Shown piece by piece: positions 8,610 through 38,189 of a stretch of DNA of 64,000 bases. A program made the position numbers and the translations under genes. The first letter of the stretch is position 1. Each line of letters starts with the position of its first letter. The stretch lies in assembly GCA_963843575.1 (NCBI GenBank), contig CAWJKZ010000013.1:672001-736000 (forward strand), read 5' to 3'. The notes under the pieces were generated by a model, which was given only the letters and a program-made list of their open reading frames with translations, was not told the DNA's origin and did no database searches. The stretch comes from an uncultured Acidobacteriota bacterium. Its GTDB lineage: Bacteria; Acidobacteriota; UBA6911.

Positions 8610-10037
8610 TCATTTCAGCTCCGACAGGCGGCGCAGGGCTTCGGCGTTGCGGGGATCCCAGCGCAACACCTGCATATACTGCGCCTCGGCCCTCCGCGGC
8701 AGCTGCACTTTGACGTACAGCATGCCCAGCGCAAGCCGGACTTCGATGTTCATCGGGTCCAGCTCGATGGCCTTCAGCAGGTTCTGCTCCGCCTCCTTCC
8801 TGTGTTTTTTGAGTTGGGACTGGGCCACGCCGAGGAGAAGCCGGTATCTCGCCACGTCGGGCCTCAGGAAGACACACTCGCCCAACGTCGCCGCCGCCTT
8901 TTCGTAATCCTTGTCCAGGAGAGCGTCCTGGCCGACGCGGCACAGCGCGCGCGCAGTCTTGTCCTTGTCGAGATCTACGCCGGAGCGCGCCTGCAGCGCT
9001 ACTTCCACCTGGCTGTCCTTCGTCCGTCTCTGCTCGTCGTATACAGCCCGGGATGCGGGTTCGCTCAGGGTCCTGTAGGCTGCGGTGACGTACGTAAACA
9101 CCCTCTCCGCGGCTTGGCGCAACGCCGGGCTGAAGCGGTCGGACTGAAACAAGTCCGGGTGGTATTGCTTCGCGAGCCCGTGGTAGGCGGTCTTTATGTC
9201 CTCGTCGGCGGCGTCGGTGGCGACCGAGAGAATCTCGTAGTGGTTGGCCACCTCAAAACGACGCTCGAGCTCCTCGAGTTTCTGCGCGGCCTCGCACGCC
9301 TCGTTCTCCCGCACCACCTCCCGGTCGACGCGCGCACCCTCGGCCTCGATATTCAGGAACCCGAGCAGGACCAGCCTCATCAGGATCTCGCAGGGCGGAG
9401 GCTCCCCCTCAGGCAGCAACTGAAGAAATTCCCCAACCCGGATCGGGCGCTGCGCGAGCGAGCATCCGTAGGCCTCGGCGGGCTCCAGCGGCAGCTCGGA
9501 CAACAGCAGCCTGCTCCCCTCCACCAGCGAAACCACTCCCGACGCGGGCGGGGTCGCGCGCCGCCGCGCAGCTGCGCTCCGGACCGCCAAGGCGAGCAGG
9601 GCCGGTACGGGCATTTCCAAGTCGAAGTCGCGCCGGATGAGGTCCTCGCAGCCGAAATACCGGACCGTGACCTCCTCCCGCTCGAACGCCGATGCGACGA
9701 CCGCGACCGCCTGATGTCGTGCGGCCTGGCGCAAGGCTTCCGGGCTGACCTCACCACCGGCGAGTATCGCTTCGTCCGCGCTCCTGCCGGACTTCATCCG
9801 GTCCGCGATGATCGGGACTGCCGCCCTCGGCAGCAGGTTCGATTTCACCAGAAGATGCACGAGGTGCTCTTCCGGCTGGTTGCTTTCGACGAAGGCCACG
9901 TGCCCGGAGCGCAGGACCAGCTGCTTCTTCACTTTTCCCCACTCCGTCCGGACGATCCCGCCCCCGGCGGTCTCGTGGAGTTGCAGGAGGGTGTGGTTCA
10001 GCTTGACAATGCCGTTCGTGGACACATTTTTCCCCAC
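8610..10037 (-). CDS. DUF4388-like / DnaJ-domain / TPR protein
   Basis: J-domain NHYEILSV...KQYHPD; N-terminal GYF/DUF4388-like region; C-terminal TPRs. Confidence 0.8.
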   Translation of the reverse strand: MGKNVSTNGIVKLNHTLLQLHETAGGGIVRTEWGKVKKQLVLRSGHVAFVESNQPEEHLVHLLVKSNLLPRAAVPIIADRMKSGRSADEAILAGGEVSPEALRQAARHQAVAVVASAFEREEVTVRYFGCEDLIRRDFDLEMPVPALLALAVRSAAARRRATPPASGVVSLVEGSRLLLSELPLEPAEAYGCSLAQRPIRVGEFLQLLPEGEPPPCEILMRLVLLGFLNIEAEGARVDREVVRENEACEAAQKLEELERRFEVANHYEILSVATDAADEDIKTAYHGLAKQYHPDLFQSDRFSPALRQAAERVFTYVTAAYRTLSEPASRAVYDEQRRTKDSQVEVALQARSGVDLDKDKTARALCRVGQDALLDKDYEKAAATLGECVFLRPDVARYRLLLGVAQSQLKKHRKEAEQNLLKAIELDPMNIEVRLALGMLYVKVQLPRRAEAQYMQVLRWDPRNAEALRRLSELK

Positions 10038-23659: not shown

Positions 23660-23803
23660 GTGGCAAAGAGGACGTTCCAGCCCAACAACAGCAAACGAAA
23701 GAAAACCCACGGCTTCAAGTCCAGAATGGCGACTAAGGGCGGCCGGCTCGTTTTGAAGAGACGGCGGGCCAAAGGCCGCAAGAGGCTGACGGTGAGTGGC
23801 TAA
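23660..23803 (+). CDS. rpmH: 50S ribosomal protein L34
   Basis: Manual translation [47 protein letters not shown] (47 aa; below the ORF-track cutoff); GGAG RBS. Confidence 0.97.
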
Positions 23804-24224
23804 CACGGCCAGTGAGGGATTTCCCCGGCGGCACCGTATCGTGCACGGGGCGCACTACCGGGCAGTCTATGCCGCCGGCACGAAACTCCATTCCGAGAGG
23901 TTTGTGCTCTTCGGCTGCGAAAACAGCCTGAGTCATCACCGCCTCGGAATAACCGTGTCGCGGAAGGTCGGGGGGGCCGTGGTCCGCAACCGCGTCAAGC
24001 GCCTTTTCCGAGAGATTTTTCGCAAGTCCTTCGCCGAGATTCCTGGCCACTTCGATTTTGTGGTAAACGCCAGGCGCAGCTGCGCTGGTGTGTGCTATCT
24101 TGTTCTTAAGGAAGAGTTTACGGCTACGGCGCGGAAGATCTGCGTCCGGGGTAACCTTCAACCCCCGGCGGGTGCTGGAGACGGCAATGAAGGCGATGAT
24201 CCTTCTGGTCCTGCGGGGCTATAA
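23796..24224 (+). CDS. rnpA: Ribonuclease P protein component
   Basis: [25 protein letters not shown]. Confidence 0.95.
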
Positions 24225-24413: not shown

Positions 24414-26105
24414 ATGGAAAAAAGAGCTCTGGCCGCCATCGCACTCTCGATCCTGGTGCTGCTCGCGTTCCGTTACGTCGAGGAGCGGCGGATGGGGGAT
24501 GCCGCCCGGCGCCGGCCTGTCCCCGCCAGGCAGGCGCCCGCATCTCCGGCGGCACCGTCGGTCACCCCTGCCGCCCCGGCAGAGCCGGCAAGCGCCGAGC
24601 AGCCTCCACAGTCAACCGCGGCGGGAGCGGCGGATACGAGCGCCGCCCCCCGGACCGTGACCGTGGAGTCCGACCTCTACCGGGCGGTCCTCGACAACCG
24701 CGGCGCCGTGTTCACGAGCTGGCAGCTGAAGAAGTACACGGGGGCGCGGGGCGAGCCATTCGAGATGGTAGCGGGGGGCAACGGCCCTGAGGCGCGCTTC
24801 CCCGGCACGATCGCCTTCGAGGATGCCTCGGCCTCCGGTACGGCGGCGCGCGAGAACTACGAGGTGGTTACCGAAGGCGGCGGCCCCGGACCCCTCACCC
24901 CACCTGCGACGGTGACGATGCGGTTGCGCCGAGGCGACCTGACCGTCGAGAAGACCTTCCGTTTCGACAAGGACAACTACATAGCCCAGGTGTCGCTGCT
25001 CACCGAGAAGGCCGGGCGCCCTCTTCCGGGACGGTTCATCGTCGGGCAGGATATCGGGCCCGAACACGAACACCTGCTCAATCCCTCGATTCAGCTTTCT
25101 GCCGTCTACAGCCTGGCGGGCAAGGTGCACCGCGAGGCGCCGCCCAAAGACGAGAACGAGATCAAGCCGATCGCGGGCGATGTACGTTGGGCGGGGCTGG
25201 AAATGCAGTATTTCGCGATGCTCGCGATCCCGGCCCAGCCGATCCAGCTCTTCGAGGTACAAAAGAGGCCGATGCAGGCGGTCGGCCTGGACGGCAAAGA
25301 GTTCACGCGGCAATTGGTGCGGGTGACGGTCCCCGAAAACGGTAAGGCGGACTTCCGCATGTACGTCGGCCCAAAGGAACAGTCGTTGCTGGAGAAGGTA
25401 CCCGGGGTCGACCTGTCCGGTGTCATCGACTACGGCATGTTCTCCTTTCTGGTGCGTCCGCTGCTGTTCTCGCTGAAGTGGATCCATCAGTACGTGCACA
25501 ACTGGGGCGCCGCCATCATCCTCCTCACCCTTGCCCTGACCCTACTGCTGTTCCCGTTCCGTCTCAAGCAGATGGCCTCGATGAAGCGGATGCAGGTGAT
25601 CCAGCCCAAGATCAAGGAGATCCAGGAACGCTACAAGAAGTACAAGAAGACGGACCCGAAGCGCGCCGAGATGAACCAGGAGATGATGGCGCTCTACAAG
25701 GAACACAATGTCAACCCGCTCGGGGGGTGCGTTCCGCTCCTGTTGCAGATGCCGCTGCTGTTTGCGTTCTATCAGCTTCTTGCCGTCTCCATCGAGCTGC
25801 GGCACGCGCCGTTCATGCTCTGGATCCAGGATCTCGCCGTCAAGGACCCCTATTACGTCCTTCCGGTCGTCATGGGGATCACGATGTTGGTTTCGCAGAA
25901 GATGACGCCCATGACCCCCGGCACCGACCCGACCCAAGCCAAGATGATGATGTTCATGCCGGTGGTCTTTACCGTCATGTTTTTCAATATTTCCAGCGGC
26001 TTGAACCTGTATTTTCTGTGCAGTAATATCTTCCAGATCGCTTTCCAGAAAGTGGCGGAGAGGTGGTTAGGTGACCGACAATCCCCTCGCAAATCCAGAG
26101 CCTGA
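24414..26105 (+). CDS. yidC: Membrane protein insertase
   Basis: N-terminal TM, periplasmic domain, NWGAAIILLT, NPLGGCVPLLLQMP, DPYYVLP. Confidence 0.97.
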   Translation: MEKRALAAIALSILVLLAFRYVEERRMGDAARRRPVPARQAPASPAAPSVTPAAPAEPASAEQPPQSTAAGAADTSAAPRTVTVESDLYRAVLDNRGAVFTSWQLKKYTGARGEPFEMVAGGNGPEARFPGTIAFEDASASGTAARENYEVVTEGGGPGPLTPPATVTMRLRRGDLTVEKTFRFDKDNYIAQVSLLTEKAGRPLPGRFIVGQDIGPEHEHLLNPSIQLSAVYSLAGKVHREAPPKDENEIKPIAGDVRWAGLEMQYFAMLAIPAQPIQLFEVQKRPMQAVGLDGKEFTRQLVRVTVPENGKADFRMYVGPKEQSLLEKVPGVDLSGVIDYGMFSFLVRPLLFSLKWIHQYVHNWGAAIILLTLALTLLLFPFRLKQMASMKRMQVIQPKIKEIQERYKKYKKTDPKRAEMNQEMMALYKEHNVNPLGGCVPLLLQMPLLFAFYQLLAVSIELRHAPFMLWIQDLAVKDPYYVLPVVMGITMLVSQKMTPMTPGTDPTQAKMMMFMPVVFTVMFFNISSGLNLYFLCSNIFQIAFQKVAERWLGDRQSPRKSRA

Positions 26106-26565: not shown

Positions 26566-26682
26566 GAGCACCCGTCCGGGAGCCCGGGAGGGGCATCGCC
26601 CCGGGACGGCGTCGCGGACGCAAAGCTTACCTCACCTCTCCCGCTCCCCGTGTCCGCCGCTTGTTTTTGGCCCGCACCTGAG

Positions 26683-28068
26683 ATGCACGATTTGAACGAC
26701 ACAATCTGCGCCCTATCGACTGCGCCCGGTCGCGGGGGCATCGCACTGGTGCGCATGAGTGGCAACCGTAGTTTCGAGTTCCTGGACCGGGTGTTCGCGC
26801 CCGAGCGCGGGAGCGGGGGCCCGGCGGTGCCCCGTTCGGCCGTCCTCGGCCGAATTGTCGACCCTCGGTCGGGGGACGAGGTCGACCAGGTGCTGGCGAC
26901 ACGCTTTCCAGCGCCCCACTCGTACACGGGCGAGGACGTCACCGAGATCTCGCTGCACGGGAGCCCTGTGCTGGTCGCCGCGGTGCTGGACGTGCTTTGC
27001 GGCTGCGGCGCGCGCTTGGCGGGCCCCGGGGAATTCACGATGCGGGCATTCCTTCACGGCCGGCTCGACTTGGCGCAGGCGGAGGCGGTGAGGGACATCG
27101 TGGACGCGACCACGCTCTACCAGGCTCGGGTCGCGTCGCGGCAGCGCGACGGGGAGCTCTCGAACGCCCTCGCGCCGTTGAAGGACCTGCTGGTCAACAT
27201 CGTCGTCCAGCTCGAATCCGCGGTGGAGTTCGTGGAGCAGGATCTGGTCACCGAGTCGCGCGAGGCGCTGGCGGCGCGCCTGGAAGAAGCGCTCGTGTGG
27301 ACCTCGGGGTGGATCGACTCGTTCCGGCGCGGGCGGATCGTGCGCGAAGGTTTCAGCCTGGCGGTCGCCGGACGCCCGAACGTCGGGAAGAGCAGCGTGT
27401 TCAACTCCCTGCTGTCGCGGGACCGCTCGATCGTGACCGAGCTGCCGGGCACGACGCGGGACCTCGTGTCGGAGGACACGAGCCTGCGGGGGATTCCGGT
27501 CCGGCTGCTCGACACGGCCGGGGTGCGGGATTCCGAAGACCGGATCGAGCGGCTCGGGGTGGACCGGAGCTACCGGGCGATGGCCGATGCGGATGCGGTG
27601 CTGCACGTGGTGGATGCGAGCGCGGCTCCGGAGGGGGAAGACGAGCGGCTGCGCGCCCACCTTTCCGGGCTGCCGTGCATCGTGGTATTCAACAAGGCGG
27701 ACCTGCCGAGCGCGTGGCCGGATACCGAACGGGAGGGGTTCGGGCTCCCCAATCCCTGGGTCACCGTCTCGGCCCTGAGCGGCGCCGGCATGGACGGGCT
27801 GCGAGACACGATCCTGCGGCTCCTGTGCGGCGACGCGGGGGCGTCCCAGGACGGTCCCTTGGTCACAAACCTGCGTCATTGCCGGTGTCTCGAGGCGGTG
27901 CTGGAGCGGGTGGGGCGCGCGCAGCAAGCCCTGCGCGCCTCGGCCTCGGAGGAGCTGGTGCTGGTCGACCTGCACGCCGCGCTGAGTGAACTGGGCGCCA
28001 TAACGGGCGAGACGACCGTCGAAGACCTGCTCGGGGAAATCTTCTCGCGCTTCTGTGTCGGGAAATAG
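26683..28068 (+). CDS. mnmE: tRNA modification GTPase MnmE
   Basis: [41 protein letters not shown]. Confidence 0.98.
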
Positions 28069-28069
28069 G

Positions 28070-29962
28070 ATGAAGAGCCGTTTTCACGAGTCTTTCGACG
28101 TGGTGGTCGTCGGCGCGGGTCACGCCGGGTGCGAGGCCGCCGTGGCGTCGGCGCGCCTGGGGGCGGACACGGCGCTTTTCACGCTTAACCTGGACCTGGT
28201 GGCGCAGATGTCGTGCAACCCGGCCATCGGCGGGATCGCCAAGGGGCATCTCGTCCGGGAGATCGACGCCCTCGGCGGCGTCATGGGGGAAGTCGCCGAC
28301 CGGACGGGGATCCAGTTCCGGCTGCTGAACCGCAGCCGCGGCCCTGCCGTCCAGGCGCCGCGCTGCCAGTCTGATAAGTCTCGATATCGCAATGAGATGC
28401 GCAGATTATTGGAGGCGCATAACAACCTCCGCCTGCGCCAGTGCGAGGTGGTCGGTCTGGCAGTCGAGGGCGGGGGCGTGGCGGGGGTCGAACTCCTGGA
28501 CGGGAGGCTGGTCGGGGCGCGCGCGGTGGTTATCACGACCGGGACCTTCCTGAACGGGCTGGTACACGTCGGGGACCGGCGTTATCCCGCCGGGCGCAAC
28601 GGCGAGTCGCCGTCGGTGCTGCTCGGGGAGTGGCTGCGCCAAGCCGGTTTCCGGGTGGGGAGGCTGAAGACGGGGACGCCGCCGCGGATCGACGGGCGGA
28701 CGATCGACTACGGCCGGTTCGAGGAGCAGGCGGGGGATCCCGAGCCGACCTTCTTCTCGTTTTGGAGCGAGGCGGTAGCATTACGACAAGTGTCATGTTA
28801 TGTTGGATATACGGGTGGAAAGATGCACGACGTGGTGCGGCGCAACCTGGGTCGTTCCGCGCTGTACGGCGGTGCGATCAGGGGGATCGGGCCGCGGTAT
28901 TGTCCCAGCATCGAGGACAAGGTGGTGAAGTTCGCCGACAAGGAGCGGCACCAGCTTTTTCTGGAGCCGGAGGGGTTGGACACGCACGAAGTGTATCTGA
29001 ACGGGCTGTCGACCAGCATGCCGGCGGAGGTGCAGCAGGAGATGCTCGAGGCGGTGCCGGGGCTGGAGGGGGCGAAGATGATCCGGCCGGGGTACGCGAT
29101 CGAGTACGACTTCATCGATCCGACGGAGCTGATGCCGTCGCTGGAGACCAAGAGGGTGGCGGGGCTCTACTACGCGGGGCAGATCAACGGGACGACCGGG
29201 TACGAGGAGGCGGCGGCGCAGGGGCTGGTCGCGGGGATAAACGCGGCGCTGAAGGCGGCAGGCAGGGATGCGGTGCACTTTCCGCGGGAGGGGAGCTACA
29301 TCGGGACGTTGTTGGACGACCTGGTGACGCGAGGGGTGGACGAGCCTTACCGCATGTTCACGTCGCGGTCGGAGGTTCGTTTGCTGCTGCGGATCGACAA
29401 CGCAGACCGGCGTCTGACGCCGACGGGTCACGCCCTGGGGCTGGTGCCGGAGGCGCATTTCCGGAAGTTCCAGGAGAAGTACGAGCAGGTGGAGGGGGCT
29501 CTCCGTTTTCTGCGCGGGCGTCGTTACGACCCGGGCGAGGCGTCGTGCCCGGAGCTCGAGGCGAAGGTGGGCGGGGCCGGGGCGAAGGGGGCGACGCTGG
29601 AGCAGCTGCTGCGGCGGCCGGGGGTGGTGCTGGACGATTTGGATCCGGTGTTGCGGAGGCACGGCGTGGTGCTGTCCGGGGCGGCGCGGTGCGCGGTGGA
29701 GGTCGAGGTGCGCTACGACGGTTACATCGCGCAGCAGCGCCGGGACGCCGAGAGGATTGGCCGTCTTGCGGCGCGGCGGATCCCGGAGGATCTCGACTAC
29801 GGGAAGATCGAGGGGCTGAGCCGCGAGATGCGGGAGAAGCTGGTGCGGGTGCGGCCGCGGGACCTCGGGATGGCGGCGCGGATCCCGGGGGTGACGCCGG
29901 CCGCCGTATCGATCCTCAACGTGCAGATCGAGATGCGCCGGCGCAGGCGGGGTCCGGAGTAA
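28070..29962 (+). CDS. mnmG: tRNA uridine 5-carboxymethylaminomethyl modification enzyme MnmG (GidA)
   Basis: [47 protein letters not shown]. Confidence 0.98.
28373..28401. promoter_or_regulatory. Embedded 29-bp dyad site (GA TAAGTC-N13-GAGATG CG)
   Basis: AT-rich rare-codon island inside mnmG; member of the parS-proximal motif family. Confidence 0.45.
28785..28813. promoter_or_regulatory. Embedded 29-bp dyad site (GA CAAGTG-N13-GATATA CG)
   Basis: AT-rich rare-codon island inside mnmG. Confidence 0.45.
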
Positions 29963-29970
29963 GGGGGGCC

Positions 29971-30624
29971 ATGGACGCGGCGGAGGGACTGGAGCGGCTG
30001 ATTGCAGGGGCGGGGGTGGATGCGGCCGCCGGGGAGCGTCTGAGGGTTTACCTCCGGCTGCTGCTGAAGTGGAATGCGCGGCTTAACCTGACGGGCCGGA
30101 CCGACTGGGAGGGGCTCGGGCCGCACTTCGGCGAGGGGGTATGGGCGGCGGCGCTCGGGAGGTGGGAGCCTGCGCTTCACCTGGACATCGGGAGCGGCGC
30201 GGGATTCCCGGCGCTGCCGATGGCGGCTTTGCGGCCGCGGGGGCGCTTCGAACTGGTGGAGGCTCGGGCGCGCCGCTGCGTGTTCCTGGAGGTGGCGGCG
30301 CGGGAGCTGGGGCTGACGGGCGTCCGGGTGTGCCAGCTGAGGCTGTCGGACTACCTTGCGGAGAACGCGGCGGGCGGCTGGGATCGCGTCAGCTGGAAAG
30401 GGGTGCGGCTCGGCGCGCGGGACGCGGATGGGCTGTTGCGCCGGGGGGCGCCCGGGGTGGAATTCTGGCTCTTTCACGGCCGGGAACTCCCGGTCGAGGA
30501 GCCTGAGGCGTGGCTGCGGGCCGTGCGGCTGACGCGCCGGGTTAGCTTCCCCGGCAAGGCTGGCTGGTTCCTGTCGATCTACCGGCGGCAGCCGGACCTT
30601 CCTGTTTCACGTGAAACAAGCTGA
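29971..30624 (+). CDS. rsmG: 16S rRNA m7G527 methyltransferase RsmG (GidB)
   Basis: LLKWNARLNLTG, LDIGSGAGFPA, VEARARRCVFL; follows mnmG. Confidence 0.88.
   Translation: MDAAEGLERLIAGAGVDAAAGERLRVYLRLLLKWNARLNLTGRTDWEGLGPHFGEGVWAAALGRWEPALHLDIGSGAGFPALPMAALRPRGRFELVEARARRCVFLEVAARELGLTGVRVCQLRLSDYLAENAAGGWDRVSWKGVRLGARDADGLLRRGAPGVEFWLFHGRELPVEEPEAWLRAVRLTRRVSFPGKAGWFLSIYRRQPDLPVSRETS
30603..30618. other. parS centromere site (perfect consensus)
   Basis: TGTTTCACGTGAAACA, at the 3' end of rsmG just upstream of parA. Confidence 0.95.
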
Positions 30625-30670
30625 ACTTCACGAAACGGACGCGCGCGGGGGGCGCCCCGCCGCGCTTTTT

Positions 30671-30686
30671 TGCTTCACGTGAAACA
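30671..30686. other. parS centromere site (1 mismatch)
   Basis: TGCTTCACGTGAAACA. Confidence 0.9.
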
Positions 30687-30733
30687 ATTCCCGCGCAAAG
30701 TGTGCTATTCTCCGGCCGAGCGCGCGCGACGCC

Positions 30734-31509
30734 ATGGCCAAAATCATCTCCATCACGAACCAGAAGGGGGGCGTGGGCAAGACCACCACGGCCATCAACC
30801 TCGGCGCCGCGCTCGCCTGCGCCGACATGCGCGTGCTCATCGTCGACACCGACGCCCAGGCCAACTGCACGAGCGGGCTCGGCTTCGCCAAGGGGGGGGG
30901 CGCAAGAGCATCTACGACGCGCTCATCCGGGAGGAACCGCTCGAGCGCCTGCTCGTCGACACCGAACTGGACAGCCTGAAACTCGTCCCCGCCGACCGCA
31001 GCCTCACCGGGGCTGCCATCGAGATGATCGAGCTTCCCGACCGGGAGATGATCCTGAAGCGTCTGCTGCAACCGCTCCTCCACCGCTTCGACTTCATCCT
31101 GATCGACACCCCCCCGTCGCTCAACATCCTCACGCTGAACGGGCTCGTCGCCGCGCACTCCGTCCTGATCCCGATACAATGCGAGTACTTCGCCCTCGAG
31201 GGGATCTCCGACCTCATGGACACGCTCGCCCGCGTGCGCCGCACCCTGAACCCCTCCCTCGCCGTCCAGGGGATCCTCCTGACCATGTTCGACGAACGGA
31301 CCAACCTCAGCGCGCAGGTCCGGGCCGACCTGCGCAAGTTTTTCCCGACCCAGATGCTGCAGACCGTCATCCCCCGCAACGTGCGGCTGGCCGAGGCTCC
31401 GAGCTTCGGTAAGCCTATAATGCTCTATGACATACGCTCAAAGGGCGCCGACAGCTATATCGCCCTCGCGAAGGAAATCCTGAACCATGAAAAAAAAGGT
31501 CTTGGGTAG
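30734..31509 (+). CDS. parA: Chromosome partitioning ATPase ParA/Soj; frameshift in a G9 run at 30892-30900
   Basis: [24 protein letters not shown], then in the next frame [32 protein letters not shown]. Confidence 0.95.
31408..31436. promoter_or_regulatory. Embedded 29-bp dyad site (GG TAAGCC-N13-GACATA CG)
   Basis: AT-rich rare-codon island inside parA. Confidence 0.45.
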
Positions 31510-32323
31510 AGGGTTGGAAGCGCTGATCCCGGAAGTCGAACGGGCCGAGCCCGCGACCTCGGACATCGACCTCGACCGGATCACCCCCAACCCGGAGCAG
31601 CCGCGCCTGCATATCGACGACGCCCGGCTCGAAGGGCTCGCCGCCTCGATACGGGAAAACGGCGTCCTGCAGCCGATCCTCGTCCGCCCCAAGGGGGACG
31701 GCTACGAACTCGTCGCCGGTGAACGCCGCGTCGCCGCCGCGCAGCGCGCCGGACTGCTCAAAATACCCGCCGTCGTGCGCAGCGTCCCCGACGAGCGGCT
31801 CCTCGAGCTCGCCCTCGTCGAGAACATCCAGCGCGAGGAGCTCAACCCCATCGAGGAGGCGCAGGCCTACCAGCGGCTCGCCGAGGAGCTCGCCATCACG
31901 CAGGAACAGCTCGCCGCCCGCCTGGGCAAGGAACGGAGCACCGTCGCCAACGCCCTCCGGCTCCTCAAACTCCCCAAGACCGTCAGGGAACTCGTCGCCT
32001 CCGGCCAGCTTTCCCCCGGACACGCCCGCGCCCTCCTGGCCGCAGACCTCCCACCCGCCGAAATCGCCAAGGCCGCCGACCTCATGGTCCGGCAGGGGTG
32101 GTCCGTGCGCGACGCCGAACGCTGGGCCAAAAGCCAGCCGCGCAAGACGAAAGCCGCCCACCCCCGCGACCCCAACGCCGCCGCCGCCGAAGACCGCCTT
32201 CGGACCGTCATGGGCACCAAGGTCGAAATCCGCAAAGGCAAAGCCGACGGGCCCGGGCACATCCGGATTTACTTTTACAACGAAGAGGACCTCATCCGCA
32301 TCTACGCCATGCTTACGGAGTAA
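31487..32323 (+). CDS. parB: Chromosome partitioning protein ParB/Spo0J
   Basis: [41 protein letters not shown]. Confidence 0.97.
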   Translation: MKKKVLGRGLEALIPEVERAEPATSDIDLDRITPNPEQPRLHIDDARLEGLAASIRENGVLQPILVRPKGDGYELVAGERRVAAAQRAGLLKIPAVVRSVPDERLLELALVENIQREELNPIEEAQAYQRLAEELAITQEQLAARLGKERSTVANALRLLKLPKTVRELVASGQLSPGHARALLAADLPPAEIAKAADLMVRQGWSVRDAERWAKSQPRKTKAAHPRDPNAAAAEDRLRTVMGTKVEIRKGKADGPGHIRIYFYNEEDLIRIYAMLTE

Positions 32324-32343
32324 CGCCTTCAACGGAGCCAACT

Positions 32344-32796
32344 ATGAAATTCAGAAAGGAAACGTCCGACGAAATCCTCAGCCTGCTCGGCGAAGGGGTC
32401 GAGGTCGTCGGTGAGATCTCCTTCAGCCAGGGGCTGCGCGTCGACGGGATCGTCAAGGGGAGGATTCGCTCGGAGGCCACCCTCGTCGTCGGCAAGAGTG
32501 GCCGCGTCGAGGCCGAGGTCAACGTGCGCAGGGTCTCCATAAATGGCGACTTCCGCGGTATCATCCACGCATCGGACCGCGTCGAGATCCACAAGGACGG
32601 CAAGGTCTACGGAGAGATCTTCGCGCCCTGCCTGATAATCGAAGCGGGCGCGCTGTTTGAAGGGAAGTGCAACATGGCCGAAAGCCGGGCCCCCAAGCCC
32701 GACCACCCGGCCGCGGCCCCCCGGGAAGCCGATACGTCCGGCACCCCCGTGGGGCTGTCTCAGTCTGCGGGCGGCGAAAAAACATGGACGAACTGA
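32344..32796 (+). CDS. Bactofilin (polymer-forming cytoskeletal protein)
   Basis: SLLGEGVEVVGEI...LRVDG...V.G.I.A...IEAGALFEGKC. Confidence 0.9.
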   Translation: MKFRKETSDEILSLLGEGVEVVGEISFSQGLRVDGIVKGRIRSEATLVVGKSGRVEAEVNVRRVSINGDFRGIIHASDRVEIHKDGKVYGEIFAPCLIIEAGALFEGKCNMAESRAPKPDHPAAAPREADTSGTPVGLSQSAGGEKTWTN

Positions 32797-33829
32797 AACG
32801 ACTTACGGAACTGGTCTCCTGTGCCGGTTGAGCGAGTAAGCTGAGCGCAACCAGCCTGGCCCAGGTCCTGGGTCAATTGCCCGTCTATCCCGAACCCGAC
32901 GTCCTGGTCGGCTACCACACCGCCGACGACGCGGGCGTGTTCCGCCTCGACGACGGGCACGCCCTCGTCCAGACGCTCGATTTCTTCACCCCAGTGGTCG
33001 ACGATCCCTTCGCCTACGGTGCCATCGCCGCCGCCAACGCGCTCAGCGACGTCTACGCCATGGGCGGTAAACCACTGACAGCACTTGCGATCGCTTGCTT
33101 TCCAGAAAAAGGGGTCGACCTCGACATCCTGGCCCGCATCATGACCGGCGGGCTCGAAAAACTGCGCGAGGCCGGCGTCGCCCTCCTGGGCGGCCACACC
33201 GTCGCCGACCAGGAGATCAAGTTCGGGTACTCCATCACCGGCCTGATCCACCCCGAACCGTATCCTCACTAACGCGGGCGCCCGCCCCGGCGATCAACTC
33301 GTCCTCACCAAGCCCCTCGGACTCGGCATCCTGACAAGCGGCATCAAGTTCAACAAGACCAGCCCCGCCGCCGCCCGGGAGGCGATCCGGGTGATGTCGA
33401 CCCTCAACCGGGACGCCGCCGCCGCCATGCTGCGCCACCGCTGCCACGGCGCCACCGACATCACCGGGAACGGCCTGCTCGGCCACGCTTACGAAATGGC
33501 CCAGGCAAGCGGGGCCGCCCTGCGCTTCTGGTCGGCCACCGTCCCCGTGCTCCCGGAAGCCCTGGAACTGACTCGCCAAGGGACTCCTCCCCCGTACCGC
33601 ACACACGACCTGGACCATGATCGCAAGACTCCACCCGCGTTGGACCCCTCGTCCCCGAACCTGTCAAAAACGCGACTGCTCGATCCACAGACCTCCGGCG
33701 GCCTGCTGATCGCCGTCGACGGACACGGATCTCGAAAACCTGCTGGCGGATCTTACCGTTAATCAGGTACAGGCAACCCACGTGGGAACGGTGGAGGAGT
33801 ATCGGAACGCGCGGATAATCGTGGATTGA
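32784..33829 (+). CDS. selD: Selenide, water dikinase with an in-frame UGA (Sec16); frameshifts near 33258 and 33720-33780
   Basis: [81 protein letters not shown]. Confidence 0.93.
32858..32874 (+). promoter_or_regulatory. Candidate bacterial SECIS hairpin
   Basis: GGCCCAG-GUC-CUGGGUC stem with an apical G about 33 nt after the UGA at 32829-32831. Confidence 0.5.
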
Positions 33830-33841
33830 AACCGAAGTGGG

Positions 33842-34129
33842 CTAAACCTCGGCGTCTACTGCTATCTTGAGAGATTTAAGGAATTTAGCGTCTTCGCTCG
33901 TAATGCGCAAGCGCACCGGGTCCTCGGTCTTGACCGGCGTCGAAATCGTTTCGTCGTCGCCCTTCCCCTTGCGGTTGTAACCGATCTTCGCTTCAATTAT
34001 CAGGAAGACCTCGTAGCCGGAGTCCCGGATGTTCTGGATGGATTCGTTGATCTTGGGAGATTCGCTCAGAGTCTCGTTGATGGACTCTCCCAGTGTCTTC
34101 ATGAGACGTTTGATTTCTGCGTCAGGCAT
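33842..34129 (-). CDS. Small hypothetical protein
   Basis: 95-aa ORF with AGGAGAGG RBS and a strong promoter; non-shadow amino-acid composition. Confidence 0.8.
   Translation of the reverse strand: MPDAEIKRLMKTLGESINETLSESPKINESIQNIRDSGYEVFLIIEAKIGYNRKGKGDDETISTPVKTEDPVRLRITSEDAKFLKSLKIAVDAEV
33861..33889. promoter_or_regulatory. Embedded 29-bp dyad site (GC TATCTT-N13-AATTTA GC)
   Basis: Close match to the copy at 24094-24122 in rnpA. Confidence 0.45.
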
Positions 34130-34208
34130 GCGCCTCTCCTAAAACGGTCCTTCCTAGCGGCGAGCTGTGAGGAAGAAATCGCTGATTCGGAATTAAAACG
34201 GTAAAAAT

Positions 34209-34237
34209 ATCTTAAATAAGTCGTGAATCGCTGTCAA
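34209..34237 (-). promoter_or_regulatory. Sigma-70 promoter of the 95-aa gene
   Basis: TTGACA-N17-TAAGAT. Confidence 0.7.
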
Positions 34238-34330
34238 GATTGAACTTACAATGCCCGTTCGCCTCTTGCCATGAAACCATTGCCCATTGCCAGATCCAGG
34301 ACATTGGCTCATCATAGGAGATTTGATAAA

Positions 34331-35869
34331 ATGGAGCAGAAAGCGCTCTACCCGCCCCGGGAGACGCCGCCCGAAGAACCCGGCTCGTACCCCTTCACCC
34401 GAGGGGTTTACCAGAACATGTACCGGGGGCGGCTCTGGACCATGCGGCAGTACGCCGGCTTTGCCGGCGCCCGGGAGTCCAACAGCCGTTACCGCTATCT
34501 CCTCGAGCAGGGACAGACCGGCCTGAGCGTCGCCTTCGATCTACCCACCCAGATGGGAATCGATCCCGACAGCCCCGCGGCCTCGGGGGAAGTCGGCAAG
34601 GTGGGTGTCTCCGTCGCCTCGCTCGAGGACATGGAGGTGCTGCTCGACGGCCTGCCGCTCGACCGGGTCTCCATCTCCATGACCATAAACAGCACCGCCG
34701 CAATCCTCCTTGCCATGGTCTTGTCCATCGCCCGGCGTCGCGGTGTGCCGTGGATGGCGCTGCGGGGCACCATTCAGAACGACATCCTCAAAGAGTATAT
34801 CGCGCGCGGGACCTACATCTTTCCCCCGGTGCCGTCGCTCCGCATCACCACAGACATCTTCGCCTTCTGCCGCGAGCACGTCCCGTCGTGGAACACGATC
34901 TCGATCAGCGGCTACCACATCCGCGAGGCGGGATCGACCGCCGTCCAGGAAGTCGCCTTCACCCTCGCCAACGGCATCACGTATGTCCAGAGCGCGCTGG
35001 ATGCCGGGCCTGCAGATCGACGAGTTTGCCGGGCAGCTGTCGTTTTTCTTCAACGCGCACAACAATTTCCTGGAAGAGATCGCAAAGTACCGAGCGGCCC
35101 GCCGCCTCTGGGCCCGGATAATGCGCGAGCGTTTCGGTGCCCGGAGCCCCCGCTCCTGGGCCTTGCGCTTCCACACCCAGACAGCCGGCAGCACCTTGAC
35201 CGCCCAGCAGCCCGAAAACAATGTCGTTCGGGTCGCGCTTCAGGCCCTCGCCGCCGTGCTCGGCGGGACACAGTCGCTGCACACCAACTCGCTCGATGAG
35301 GCGCTGGCGCTCCCGAGCGCCGAGGCCGTCCGGATCGCCTTGCGGACCCAGCAGATCATCGCCTTCGAAAGCGGCGTCGCCAACACCGCGGACCCGCTCG
35401 GAGGCTCTTACGCGATCGAAACGATGACCGACGAAATCGAGGCTGGAGGCCGAGCAGTACCTGCACAAGATCGATGCGCTCGGCGGCATGCTCGAGGCCA
35501 TCGGACAGGGTTACGTCCAGCGGGAAATCCAGGACGCCGCGTACGAAGCCCAGCTCAAGACTGAACGCGGCGAAAACGTCATCGTCGGCGTGAACCGGTT
35601 CACCACCGAGGAAAAGAGCCGCATCGAGCTGCTCGTGGTTGGACGAGGAGGTCGCCGAAACCCGCAGGCGCGAAGTCGCGGGACTCCGCTCCCGACGCGA
35701 TGCCGCGGCTGCCGCCCGCGCCCTCGACGCGCTCGGCCGCGCCGCGCAAGGGAACGACAACCTCCTCCCGCCGGTCATCGACTGCGTCGAGGCGCTCACG
35801 ACCGTGGGGGAGATCTCCGACTGCCTGCGGGCTGTCTTCGGCCAGTACCGCGAATCCGTCGTCCTGTAG
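34331..35869 (+). CDS. Methylmalonyl-CoA mutase family, large (substrate-binding) subunit; about 3 frameshifts
   Basis: [65 protein letters not shown]; no B12-binding domain. Confidence 0.93.
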
Positions 35870-36870: not shown

Positions 36871-38189
36871 CCTTCAAGCCCAGTGCGATCAGGATCGCGG
36901 CGACCGTGTGGAACGCGTTCATGACGGGCCCGCTTGCGCGCGCGTGGCCTTTCCCGGCCGAGATCCAGCTCTCGATGTGGGTTGCGATGGCCGCCGCGGC
37001 CGCCGCCCACACCGCGCCTCTTGCGCTTACCAGACCCGACCAGCAGCCTGCCGTCGCCATGGCGACGGCGGCCAGCAGGCCGGCCGCACTCCCTGCGAGC
37101 GACACCGCCCCGCGGGTGCCCGGCGGGACCTGTTTGAAACTCCTGATCAGGAAGGGCCGGCCGCCCGCCAGCAGCCCCAGCTCGGTGGCCGTCGTGTCGC
37201 AAAGCGACGCCGACAGAGCCGCGACGAAACCGAGCTGCGCTGACGTCTTGTCTTCCAGGAAGATGGATGCCGCCGCCGCGAGGAAGGCGGCCACCCCCTT
37301 GCCCCAGACATGCCGCGAGGAGCGCCGCGAGTGGTCCGGCTGGGCGGCGCCCAGCCGAGCCTTGCGGCCGTACCCGATCCTGGTGAACAAGCGTCCCGAG
37401 TACAAAAAACGCCGCCAGCAGACGCAAACCCCTCTAAGCCGAACGCGTAGTACACCACGGTCCCGATTGCCGCACCGGAGGCGAATCCCCCCAGCGACAC
37501 ACCGCCGACGGCAAGCGCCGCCGCCCCGAAGCCCCCCGCCAGCAATATTCCCAGTCCCAGGGCCGGGGCAGAGAAGCCGCGTGGCAGGGACGCTCCGGTC
37601 AGCCATGACAGAAAAATCCCGCCGGAGGCGCAGATGGCCAGGTTGTCGTCGATCGGCAGCGGCAGCGTCTCCACGACCGAGCAGACCAGCGAGGTCGCTA
37701 CGGCGATACCAGAGCGTCAGACCGTAGCGAATCGGGACGTCTCCGGGGAGCCCAGTCCAGACGAGAAGAACGAAGGCGGCCAGGGTTGAAGCGAAGAAGC
37801 CCGCAACGGTGCCGAGCCAGGTTTTCGAACGGTTCCAGGGCAGGGTCTTCCGGCCGAATTTCCGGCCGACAACGTTGGAGACGGAGTCGCCGACTGCGAG
37901 GTTGGCCCAGGCCGCGACGACGATGAAAGGCGGGAAAAGCAGGACCAGCAGGAACACCGCAGACTCCGTACCAGACCTTCCCCGGCGAGGAGGCGCCGGT
38001 GGCTTCCCCCGGACGGCGCGTCCCCGGCCACAGGCGCGAGGAGAGAGCCCCGTAGACAATCGCCACGGCCGCCAGCGCGAGCGCCTGCGGCCGGCTCAGA
38101 TACCGCATCAGGAACGCGAAAGCGATCGGCAGGAAGTGCTCGAGCTGACGGAGGTCTTCGTTGGGGGGGATGCTGGGCGACTCGCTCAT
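36857..38189 (-). CDS. Membrane protein: phytol/dolichol-kinase-like (CTP-dependent) N-domain fused to DUF92; several frameshifts
   Basis: EDLRQLEH, LAVGDSVSNVVGRKFG...KTWLGT, ETLPLPIDDNL; DUF92 part DTTATELG...VPPGTRGAVSLAGSAAG...ESWI. Confidence 0.75.

Follow-up and report, generated by a model that had tools for sequence, protein, structure and literature searches.

Bacterial chromosomes are usually organised into chirochores, meaning that the leading strand contains more G than C and more T than A and that the sign of this bias switches at oriC and at the terminus. Strand-coordinated clusters of mutations are furthermore known from yeast and cancer genomes, where they flank double-strand breaks and locate to the single-stranded 3' tails left after resection. 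The present work deals with a short and strong reversal of GC skew which was identified at the parS pair of a ParABS partition locus within a 64-kb stretch of DNA from an uncultured soil Acidobacteriota bacterium (G000:C13:672001-736000, hereafter the window, to which positions refer unless a contig is named). The underlying assembly comprises 6.68 Mb in 27 contigs with 64% GC (88% completeness, 3% contamination). Next to replication and strand breakage, two further systems have to be considered here, namely transcription, for which strand asymmetry resulting from cytosine loss on the non-transcribed strand is described (reviewed in PMC2031905), and ParB spreading, reported as a redistribution over about 15 kb from parS (PMC9242446).

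The locus shares properties with each of these systems and differs from each in others. As is the case for replication-associated GC and AT skew, G and T are increased and C and A decreased on one strand, the effect is strongest at synonymous sites and its sign changes abruptly. However, the dipole formed by the two skewed blocks extends over about 8-11 kb and not over a replichore, it resides in a genome essentially without replichore skew and it possesses a terminus-like polarity beside parS, 64 kb from dnaA. In accordance with transcription-associated asymmetry the coding strand of the left block is G-rich, as is that of tuf and groEL in the same genome, whereas the right block is of opposite sign relative to its own genes, which would require antisense transcription. 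Furthermore, the amplitude of +/-0.5 at four-fold degenerate (four-fold) sites lies far above the rest of the genome, with the ribosomal-protein operon lacking such a bias. A consensus parS pair directly upstream of parA-parB and a skewed zone of ParB-spreading order are shared with ParABS centromeres, but the flip is slight or missing in most relatives in which parS is placed in this way. To our knowledge, a strand-specific compositional footprint has not been reported for ParB. Finally, the geometry of break-flanking mutation clusters is matched, with the loss of C affecting the top strand to the left of the site and the bottom strand to its right. Such clusters however are somatic or experimental, while the dipole represents an evolutionary equilibrium composition and not a set of clustered mutations. 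A full-text literature search, judged from abstracts, returned no description of a local skew dipole at parS. What differs from classical strand asymmetry is the kilobase scale, the terminus-like polarity by a centromere and the extreme amplitude in the absence of a background skew.

Skew reversal at the parS pair

The parS pair consists of a perfect 16-bp palindrome (TGTTTCACGTGAAACA, 30603..30618), which overlaps the end of rsmG, and of a second copy with one mismatch (TGCTTCACGTGAAACA, 30671..30686). Both reside where an earlier reading of the DNA, made without database searches (the sequence-only reading), had placed them, and when up to two mismatches are allowed they are the only parS-like sites in the 6.68-Mb assembly. 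With a consensus palindrome and adjacent parA and parB genes, the locus corresponds to a ParABS partition locus, and ParB presumably binds to the pair. The genes on both sides of parS are all encoded on the + strand, as had been claimed, in the order rnpA, yidC, a small open reading frame (ORF), mnmE, mnmG, rsmG, a 110-bp spacer, parA, parB, a bactofilin gene and selD. Across this row, GC skew in 1-kb windows amounts to +0.121, +0.171, +0.270 and +0.113 from 27 to 31 kb and to -0.159, -0.075, -0.148 and -0.072 from 31 to 35 kb, with the flanks of this region remaining within about +/-0.09. The genome-wide standard deviation of the 1-kb skew is 0.051 (13,328 windows), and the interval 29-30 kb belongs to the twelve with the highest positive values. 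When the skew of the 4 kb to the right of a position is subtracted from that of the 4 kb to its left, the contrast peaks at 30750 with a value of 0.289 (left +0.178, right -0.110), corresponding to 7.3 standard deviations and ranking second among 25,887 positions genome-wide. The sole stronger contrast borders a low-GC island, and those following in rank are located next to such an island or to an ORF-poor stretch, not to core genes. Strong local skew contrasts of this kind were observed at a 50%-GC island that harbours a 1,784-aa gene (C9:200491-205842) and at an 11-kb G-rich stretch without any ORF of at least 300 aa, which may hold rRNA operons (C24:344342-355331).

For analysis at the gene level, a home-made caller relying on codon-usage scoring was used, which covered 68% of the genome, partly owing to frameshifts. 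Gene ranks consequently refer to called genes only, with 3,013 of these having at least 600 nt and showing a mean four-fold GC skew of -0.03 (standard deviation 0.11) on the coding strand. Among them, mnmG (28055..29962) ranks third highest with a four-fold skew of +0.49, only the two tuf copies (+0.94) being above, mnmE (26650..28068) reaches the 99.1st percentile with +0.25, and parB (31487..32323) is second lowest with -0.50. For rsmG (29971..30624) a value of +0.50 was obtained (G 92, C 31), and selD (32784..33762) shows -0.49 in the fragment 32877-33272 and -0.25 in the downstream piece 33391-33762. The preference for G-ending codons in mnmE, mnmG and rsmG and for C-ending codons in parB and selD, as seen in the sequence-only reading, is hence borne out by these values, while parA (30735..31509) follows the rule only in part: its first 57 codons are G-ending (+0.60, 25 sites) and only the following two segments are C-ending (-0.25, -0.12). 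Opposite extremes this strong within two gene positions were found in 0.64% of 5,000 gene-value shuffles (permutation p=0.006). When all codons are counted the skew persists, being strongest at four-fold sites. Taken together, the flip is confirmed to be real, local, statistically extreme and synonymous.

The shape of the dipole was derived from four-fold skew in successive 120-codon windows. Starting from about 0 in yidC, the values are +0.10, +0.24, +0.53 and +0.11 in mnmE, +0.11, +0.34, +0.71, +0.77 and +0.57 in mnmG and +0.61 and +0.33 in rsmG, and beyond parA they turn to -0.35 and -0.64 in parB, -0.38 in the bactofilin gene (32344..32796) and -0.35, -0.24 and +0.08 in a methylmalonyl-CoA mutase gene (34271..35564), the first 240 codons of which are C-ending. 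The profile is thus roughly antisymmetric but not smooth, with peaks of +0.77 at 29.1-29.5 kb and -0.64 at 31.85-32.3 kb, i.e., 1.1-1.6 kb from parS, and has faded by 4-4.6 kb. This is in agreement with the fade within about 4-5 kb estimated in the sequence-only reading, as four-fold skew has dropped to near zero once yidC is reached to the left and about 35 kb to the right. Cumulative G-C possesses a minimum at 26727 (the start of mnmE), a maximum at 30545, 58 bp before parS, and the next minimum at 37558, while the cumulative maximum of G+T versus C+A resides at 30607, inside parS. On the + strand, a G(T)-rich block (26727..30545), with about 510 G in excess of C, is in this way followed by a C(A)-rich block (30546..35300), which starts inside or just before parA and runs out in a weak tail to 37558. 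Seen from parS, G is enriched and C and A are depleted, to a distance of about 4 kb either way, on the strand that runs 5'->3' toward the site. The right block extends across three or more transcription units, and the excess of G over C on the coding strand of mnmE, mnmG and rsmG is reversed in parA, parB, the bactofilin gene, selD and the mutase gene. The same dipole is found in the congener G001, an independent assembly that is collinear with the window at 84-88% identity, where cumulative G-C reaches its maximum at 9825 and parS locates to 9803 and 9920 (22 bp off).

Compositional nature of the bias

At four-fold sites, mnmG uses G to 66% and C to 23% (GAG 94%, AAG 100%, GGG 64%), and parB uses G to 24% and C to 71% (GCC 88%, GTC 88%, GAA 54%, AAA 53%). 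Two-fold codons are affected as well: A-ending Lys, Glu and Gln codons amount to 6% in mnmG (lowest percentile) and to 43% in parB (96th percentile) as compared to a genome mean of 28%, and T-ending two-fold codons amount to 24% in mnmG (68th percentile, hence ordinary) and to 6% in parB (2nd percentile) with a genome mean of 21%. On the + strand a G,T-rich left block thereby opposes a C,A-rich right block, and the two are complementary to each other. Amino-acid composition and neighbouring-base context were rejected as a cause, as codon family and next base together predict -0.06 for mnmG and -0.02 for parB, whereas +0.49 and -0.50 are observed. Codon positions 1 and 2 follow along, their skew tracking the four-fold skew across 35-40 orthologues (MnmG r=0.62, ParB r=0.52, RsmG r=0.42), and at these positions the mnmG of the window is the most G-skewed of 39 orthologues. 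Taken together, the bias looks like a pressure on the DNA or RNA strand that is mutation-like, not like tRNA matching.

The sequence-only reading had further considered polar G-rich tracks, selected for SMC or a translocase. In the left block, GGG runs are indeed found 134 times on the + strand and 34 times on the - strand, but no single word carries the bias: on the strands running toward parS, GGGNAGGG occurs 0 and 1 times and forms no cluster, and GCTGGTGG occurs 0 times. An excess of 8 was obtained for shared 7-mers, compared with 3.97 +/- 0.73 (maximum 7) in 100 shuffles of codon order, and the top shared polar words, GGCGGCG and GCGGCGG, are Ala-Ala codon repeats. As only such codon repeats are common to both sides, the idea of selected tracks is not supported. 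The same applies to translational selection shared with ribosomal proteins, since the S10/spc-type operon beside tuf is ordinary, with four-fold skews of -0.31 to +0.21. For tuf itself, both copies of G000 (C24:247904-248830 and C14:794618-795544) were found to rely nearly exclusively on G-ending four-fold codons (GGG 96%, GCG 96%, CGG 88%, skew +0.94), and in all 19 loci identified in the class, which derive from G000 and 14 further genomes, tuf skew ranges from +0.44 to +0.95 with purine-ending codons being preferred (two of 21 loci, L158 and L170, were dropped as the wrong ORF with 0 shared words). The ribosomal-protein genes adjoining tuf show an ordinary codon skew.

Comparison of G000 with G001 revealed one third of four-fold sites to differ, C/G transversions accounting for 124/229 of these differences in the left block, 52/91 in the right block and 112/205 in control genes. 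Over ten gene segments between 22 and 40 kb of the window, C/G transversions and not transitions prevail at conserved four-fold sites (288/525 differing sites). As they lead in blocks and controls alike, the G:C ratio at four-fold sites can shift fast. Outgroups within the family are at about 70% protein identity and saturated at synonymous sites. Genome-wide, four-fold skew of neighbouring genes is correlated on the same strand (r=0.21, n=2,066) and not on opposite strands (r=-0.05, n=1,114), which suggests that causes acting at the level of the transcription unit dominate in G000.

The dipole in related genomes

Among named entries, the closest relatives of MnmG derive from uncultured Acidobacteriota and show 55-59% identity; MnmG of the congener G001 is 87% identical and 14 full-length matches within the family are at 64-71%. 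The placement of parS after rsmG is kept in 20 of 20 first loci. As a measure of the dipole, the pooled four-fold skew of parA and parB was subtracted from that of mnmG and rsmG, yielding D (locus L147, without a match to MnmG or RsmG, was left out). D amounts to 0.78 in G000, 0.56 in G001, 0.33 in G010 and 0.30 in G011. Within family f1, to which the latter three belong, D is positive in 16 of 17 loci with a median of 0.10, and in other families it is positive in 16 of 22 loci with a median of 0.05, among them G026 (f8) with 0.34 and G023 (f6) with 0.31. As kin are not independent of each other, these counts are descriptive and do not constitute a test. The dipole is amplified in the genus, weak but mostly of the same sign in the family and small in other families.

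An alternative gene order was found in G026, where mnmG, rsmG, parS, parA and parB are followed by a second parS-like site and then by mnmE, yidC and one more gene on the - strand. These three - strand genes (+0.42, +0.39, +0.36) together with rsmG (+0.35) hold the first four places for G-ending codon use among 199 genes and all of them are directed at parS, with parA and parB showing -0.13 and -0.19. For yidC, four-fold skew is +0.39 at a distance of about 2.8 kb from parS in G026 and 0.00 at 4.5-6 kb in the window. G026 thereby obeys the rule that the strand running toward parS is G-rich, despite its other gene order. In G072 and four other f19 loci, as in G096 and other f8 loci, the sign is the same on both sides of parS. 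A stretch of G072 (G072:C1:2857000-2890000, L191-L193) is conspicuous in that the 29 kb between parS and dnaA show a four-fold R of -0.14, compared with about -0.02 to -0.06 on the left and +0.02 to +0.05 on the right, and this interval looks like a locally amplified replication-type bias. Further afield, 80 distant MnmG loci from several phyla were compared, only 18 of which possess a parS-like site within the locus; no comparable dipole was found, a result of little bearing as gene orders differ.

Origin of the dipole

As a possible explanation, to which we give tentative preference, the dipole may be caused by two opposed streams of transcription that stop at the parS pair. Transcription on each side would leave the strand running toward parS single-stranded and as a consequence prone to cytosine loss. 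To the left, the row rnpA...mnmE-mnmG-rsmG would be transcribed in sense direction, and to the right leftward antisense transcription would start from a conserved putative promoter on the - strand at 34.2 kb (sigma-70-like TTGACA-17-TAAGAT, 34209..34237), perhaps from further out. Both streams would end at the parS pair, with its hairpin terminator in G000 and presumably bound by ParB, and the high synonymous G/C turnover would let a modest bias reach an extreme in this genus. Several findings are consistent with this idea, among them the complementary, mutational type of signature, for which codon family and next base do not account, the shift of codon positions 1 and 2 along with four-fold sites, and the sharing of skew by same-strand neighbours only. 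A row of co-oriented genes, whose 3' part forms the left block, ends at a terminator-like GC-rich hairpin with a subsequent T run on the + strand (30645..30660), situated between the parS sites. On the other side, the promoter-like site is the best one within 15 kb, faces parS from 3.5 kb to the right and has surroundings that are unusually conserved in G001, and the greatest C-richness lies between it and parS. The genes of G026 transcribed toward parS (mnmE, yidC and one more) occupy the top three ranks for G-ending codons with rsmG being fourth, and the highly expressed tuf and groEL are G-ending on the coding strand. If this explanation holds true, strong antisense transcription and the stopping of transcription at a bacterial centromere could be read from composition alone.

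A number of observations count against converging transcription. Antisense transcription across parAB-selD is inferred purely from the DNA, and strong transcription alone is insufficient, as the ribosomal-protein operon by tuf is without a G-ending bias. Coding-strand four-fold skew is slightly negative in the genome mean, so that sense transcription is not generally G-enriching. Within the left block, the bias climbs from 0.00 in yidC to +0.77 in the 3' half of mnmG and thus is not highest toward the promoter end. On the right, the mutase gene, located past the - strand promoter and with a + strand start of its own, is still C-ending (-0.35, -0.24), the small - strand gene is not G-rich (28 sites only), and in G001 the C-rich + strand runs into - strand genes 6-7 kb out. 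Finally, the parS spacer of G001 lacks a hairpin terminator.

Replication was weighed as an alternative, as the sequence-only reading had considered an origin in a genome with inverted skew and had pointed to the terminus-like polarity of the flip. For a true replichore boundary, which is barely credible, only the G-rich-then-C-rich polarity and the parS/mnmG context can be put forward. On both sides, skew is back to about zero within ~4-7 kb, 10-kb skews on the 831-kb contig remain mostly within +/-0.04, and once dipole genes are excluded, seven bins between 560 and 831 kb, covering 140 kb on either side, give a strand-corrected four-fold skew of 0.00 +/- 0.02, so that a pulse with flat flanks was found in place of a constant replichore-wide step explained by oriC or the terminus. 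The dnaA gene is located 64 kb left of the locus, and the polarity of the locus is G-to-C and not the C-to-G of an origin. No cluster of DnaA boxes was found in the 64-kb window, where five TTATCCACA-like matches (at most one mismatch) are present and none between 921 and 45,905, but the consensus used is that of E. coli and a divergent box could escape; genome-wide, DnaA boxes of this consensus did not locate oriC, with at most 3 matches per 600-bp window. Two relatives show a measurable replichore skew, in both cases with the normal polarity. In G026, where parS is located at 612 kb, C-richness of the + strand to the left of ~600 kb gives way to G-richness beyond 622 kb, in G072 (complete, single contig) an origin-like switch is found at dnaA, 29 kb from parS, and in these two genomes the C-to-G switch thus lies a few kb to ~29 kb from parS. 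A more local asymmetry of replication could be brought about either by an unrecognised origin a few kb right of parAB, with the parS-origin interval being copied leftward, or by the memory of a rearrangement that changed the direction of replication. In G072 the strongest C-richness of the + strand fills the 29-kb parS-dnaA interval in both gene orientations and falls to ~0 just past mnmG, in G026 the C-rich zone right of parS stops at the origin-like switch about 9 kb away, and two gene orders around parS exist in the class, so rearrangements have occurred. We nevertheless consider this very unlikely, as G000 possesses neither a G-rich region right of the C-rich block nor replichore skew, with dnaA on the left and the window devoid of a DnaA-box cluster as specified above, and as the G-rich left block would be left unexplained. 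Memory of a rearrangement should moreover have decayed, given that the gene order is common to 17 of 17 family loci and that a third of four-fold sites differ between congeners. The frameshifts in parA, selD and the mutase gene could be taken to indicate an artefact of assembly or a mosaic made up of segments acquired horizontally, which however is highly improbable: G001, an independent assembly, shows the same dipole, gene order is kept throughout the family loci, neither block deviates from normal GC3 (0.87 and 0.86) and MnmG is as similar to its family members as expected under vertical descent.

Processing of DNA centred on parS, without transcription being involved, is unlikely. Here, recurrent breaks, gaps or stalled forks at ParB-parS would be followed by 5'->3' resection, and cytosine would be lost from the exposed strand whose 3' end points toward parS, or loading of ParB or SMC might expose this strand. 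The proximity of the node to parS in the window and in G001, with the G+T versus C+A maximum inside parS, the roughly antisymmetric profile and its limited reach are in line with such a process, as are the several transcription units spanned by the right block, the two gene orientations affected in G001 and G026, and the dependence of yidC skew on its distance from parS. A + strand with little C to the left of parS and little G to its right corresponds to the polarity expected from known 5'->3' resection, and the four-fold differences between congeners are mostly C/G transversions. However, these transversions also lead in the control genes, the spectrum therefore not being specific to the blocks, and the side of parA shows its lowest skew, and not its highest, directly beside parS. 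The node is at the same time an operon boundary, meaning that parS and gene junction are inseparable, D is small in the 22 genomes of other families, and G072 and G096 have the same sign on both sides; besides, we know of no ParB or SMC activity that exposes one strand. For the notion of a local, mutational asymmetry centred on parS, which the sequence-only reading had also offered, this means that the node and the mutation-like signature fit in the window and in G001, while parS itself would be no more than a candidate cause. A similarly unlikely reading, in our view, is that the parS/ParB centromere itself leaves a mutational footprint by exposing, over ~4 kb per side, the strand with its 3' end toward parS, be it through breakage or fork arrest at the ParB complex with resection or through RNA polymerases from both sides that pile up against ParB; in lineages with weak repair of damaged single-stranded cytosine, this would drive the flanking genes to the most extreme synonymous G/C usage of the genome. 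If parS were the cause, damage or processing of DNA at a ParB complex would for the first time be seen to have left an evolutionary footprint. The same vulnerability of single strands could also show itself in tuf, a two-copy gene in which C-ending codons are avoided throughout the class. Selection acting on codon or RNA composition of individual operons, e.g., on C/G content for Rho-dependent termination or on RNA structure, with operons abutting at parS by chance, is judged quite unlikely. Such selection would be consistent with skew being correlated among same-strand neighbours only, with the means over 40 relatives (ParB -0.12 and bactofilin -0.15, hence C-ending; MnmE +0.09 and YidC +0.07, hence G-ending), with ParB being C-ending even when transcribed toward the nearest parS (6 loci, mean -0.28) and with the G-ending tuf, which looks gene-specific across the class. 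It is contradicted by MnmG, which averages 0.00 in the 39 relatives with a match, its value here thus not being a family trait, by the complementary shifts of A/G and C/T two-fold codons and of positions 1 and 2, which are those of a strand bias and not of tRNA matching, and by the unrelated genes within the right block (parAB, bactofilin, selD, mutase). Where ParB is C-ending in both orientations, ordinary replication-type strand bias accounts for it.

What requires explanation is that vertically inherited core genes on one strand reside at opposite extremes of synonymous G/C usage with the switch on a centromere-like site, and none of the usual causes of local strand anomalies, i.e., replication direction, inversions and foreign DNA, fits here. 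Irrespective of whether converging transcription or parS is the cause, dipoles of kilobase scale can mislead skew-based finders of origin and terminus.

Genes and further features of the locus

The + strand row starts with rnpA, encoding the RNase P protein (23796..24224; Pfam Ribonuclease_P, E 2e-28), and yidC (24414..26105; NCBIfam YidC models), the four-fold skew of which is ordinary. MnmE, with whose gene the G-rich block begins, was assigned by NCBIfam TIGR00450 (319.5 bits, over its cut-off) and MnmG by TIGR00136 (813.9 bits), while the TIGR00138 match of RsmG has an E-value of 1.5e-19 and lies under its cut-off (70.4 vs 99.5 bits). The hairpin between the parS sites is not conserved in G001. 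ParA possesses a KGGVGKTT Walker-type N-terminus in one frame and its remainder, with Pfam AAA_31/CbiA on the C-terminal part, in another. The switch between the two frames occurs at a G run near 30,900, and since G001 is intact there the break is probably an assembly error. Frame errors of the G000 assembly likewise split selD and break the mutase gene. ParB matches NCBIfam TIGR00180 with 183.6 bits (cut-off 58.45).

The gene directly following parB encodes a bactofilin (Pfam Bactofilin, E 5.6e-28), and a matching ORF was identified in 19 of 40 related loci; bactofilins acting together with ParB are known from Myxococcus. Both pieces of selD match NCBIfam TIGR00476, with the frame break residing between 33272 and 33391. 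Codon 16 of selD is an in-frame TGA (32829-32831), and because it falls in the motif SCAGUASKL when TGA is translated as U, the gene is predicted to encode a selenocysteine-containing SelD. No SECIS model of Rfam matched selD, and nothing was found at gathering threshold anywhere in 20-42 kb.

A small conserved hypothetical gene on the - strand (33842..34129) is directed toward parS, has a low GC content and breaks up the C-rich block. No Pfam match was obtained for it, and the nearest Atlas clusters are Acidobacteriota hypotheticals (score 0.95). The ~150 bp upstream of it, which hold TTGACA-17-TAAGAT and a long leader, are nearly identical in G001, as compared to 84-88% identity elsewhere. 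Beyond the mutase gene on the + strand, genes of the UbiA and DUF92 families are found on the - strand. Finally, the two parS sites could as RNA pair around the GC hairpin (30596-30700), for which values of -41.4 kcal/mol (z -3.3) for the + strand and -44.5 kcal/mol (z -2.6) for the - strand were obtained.

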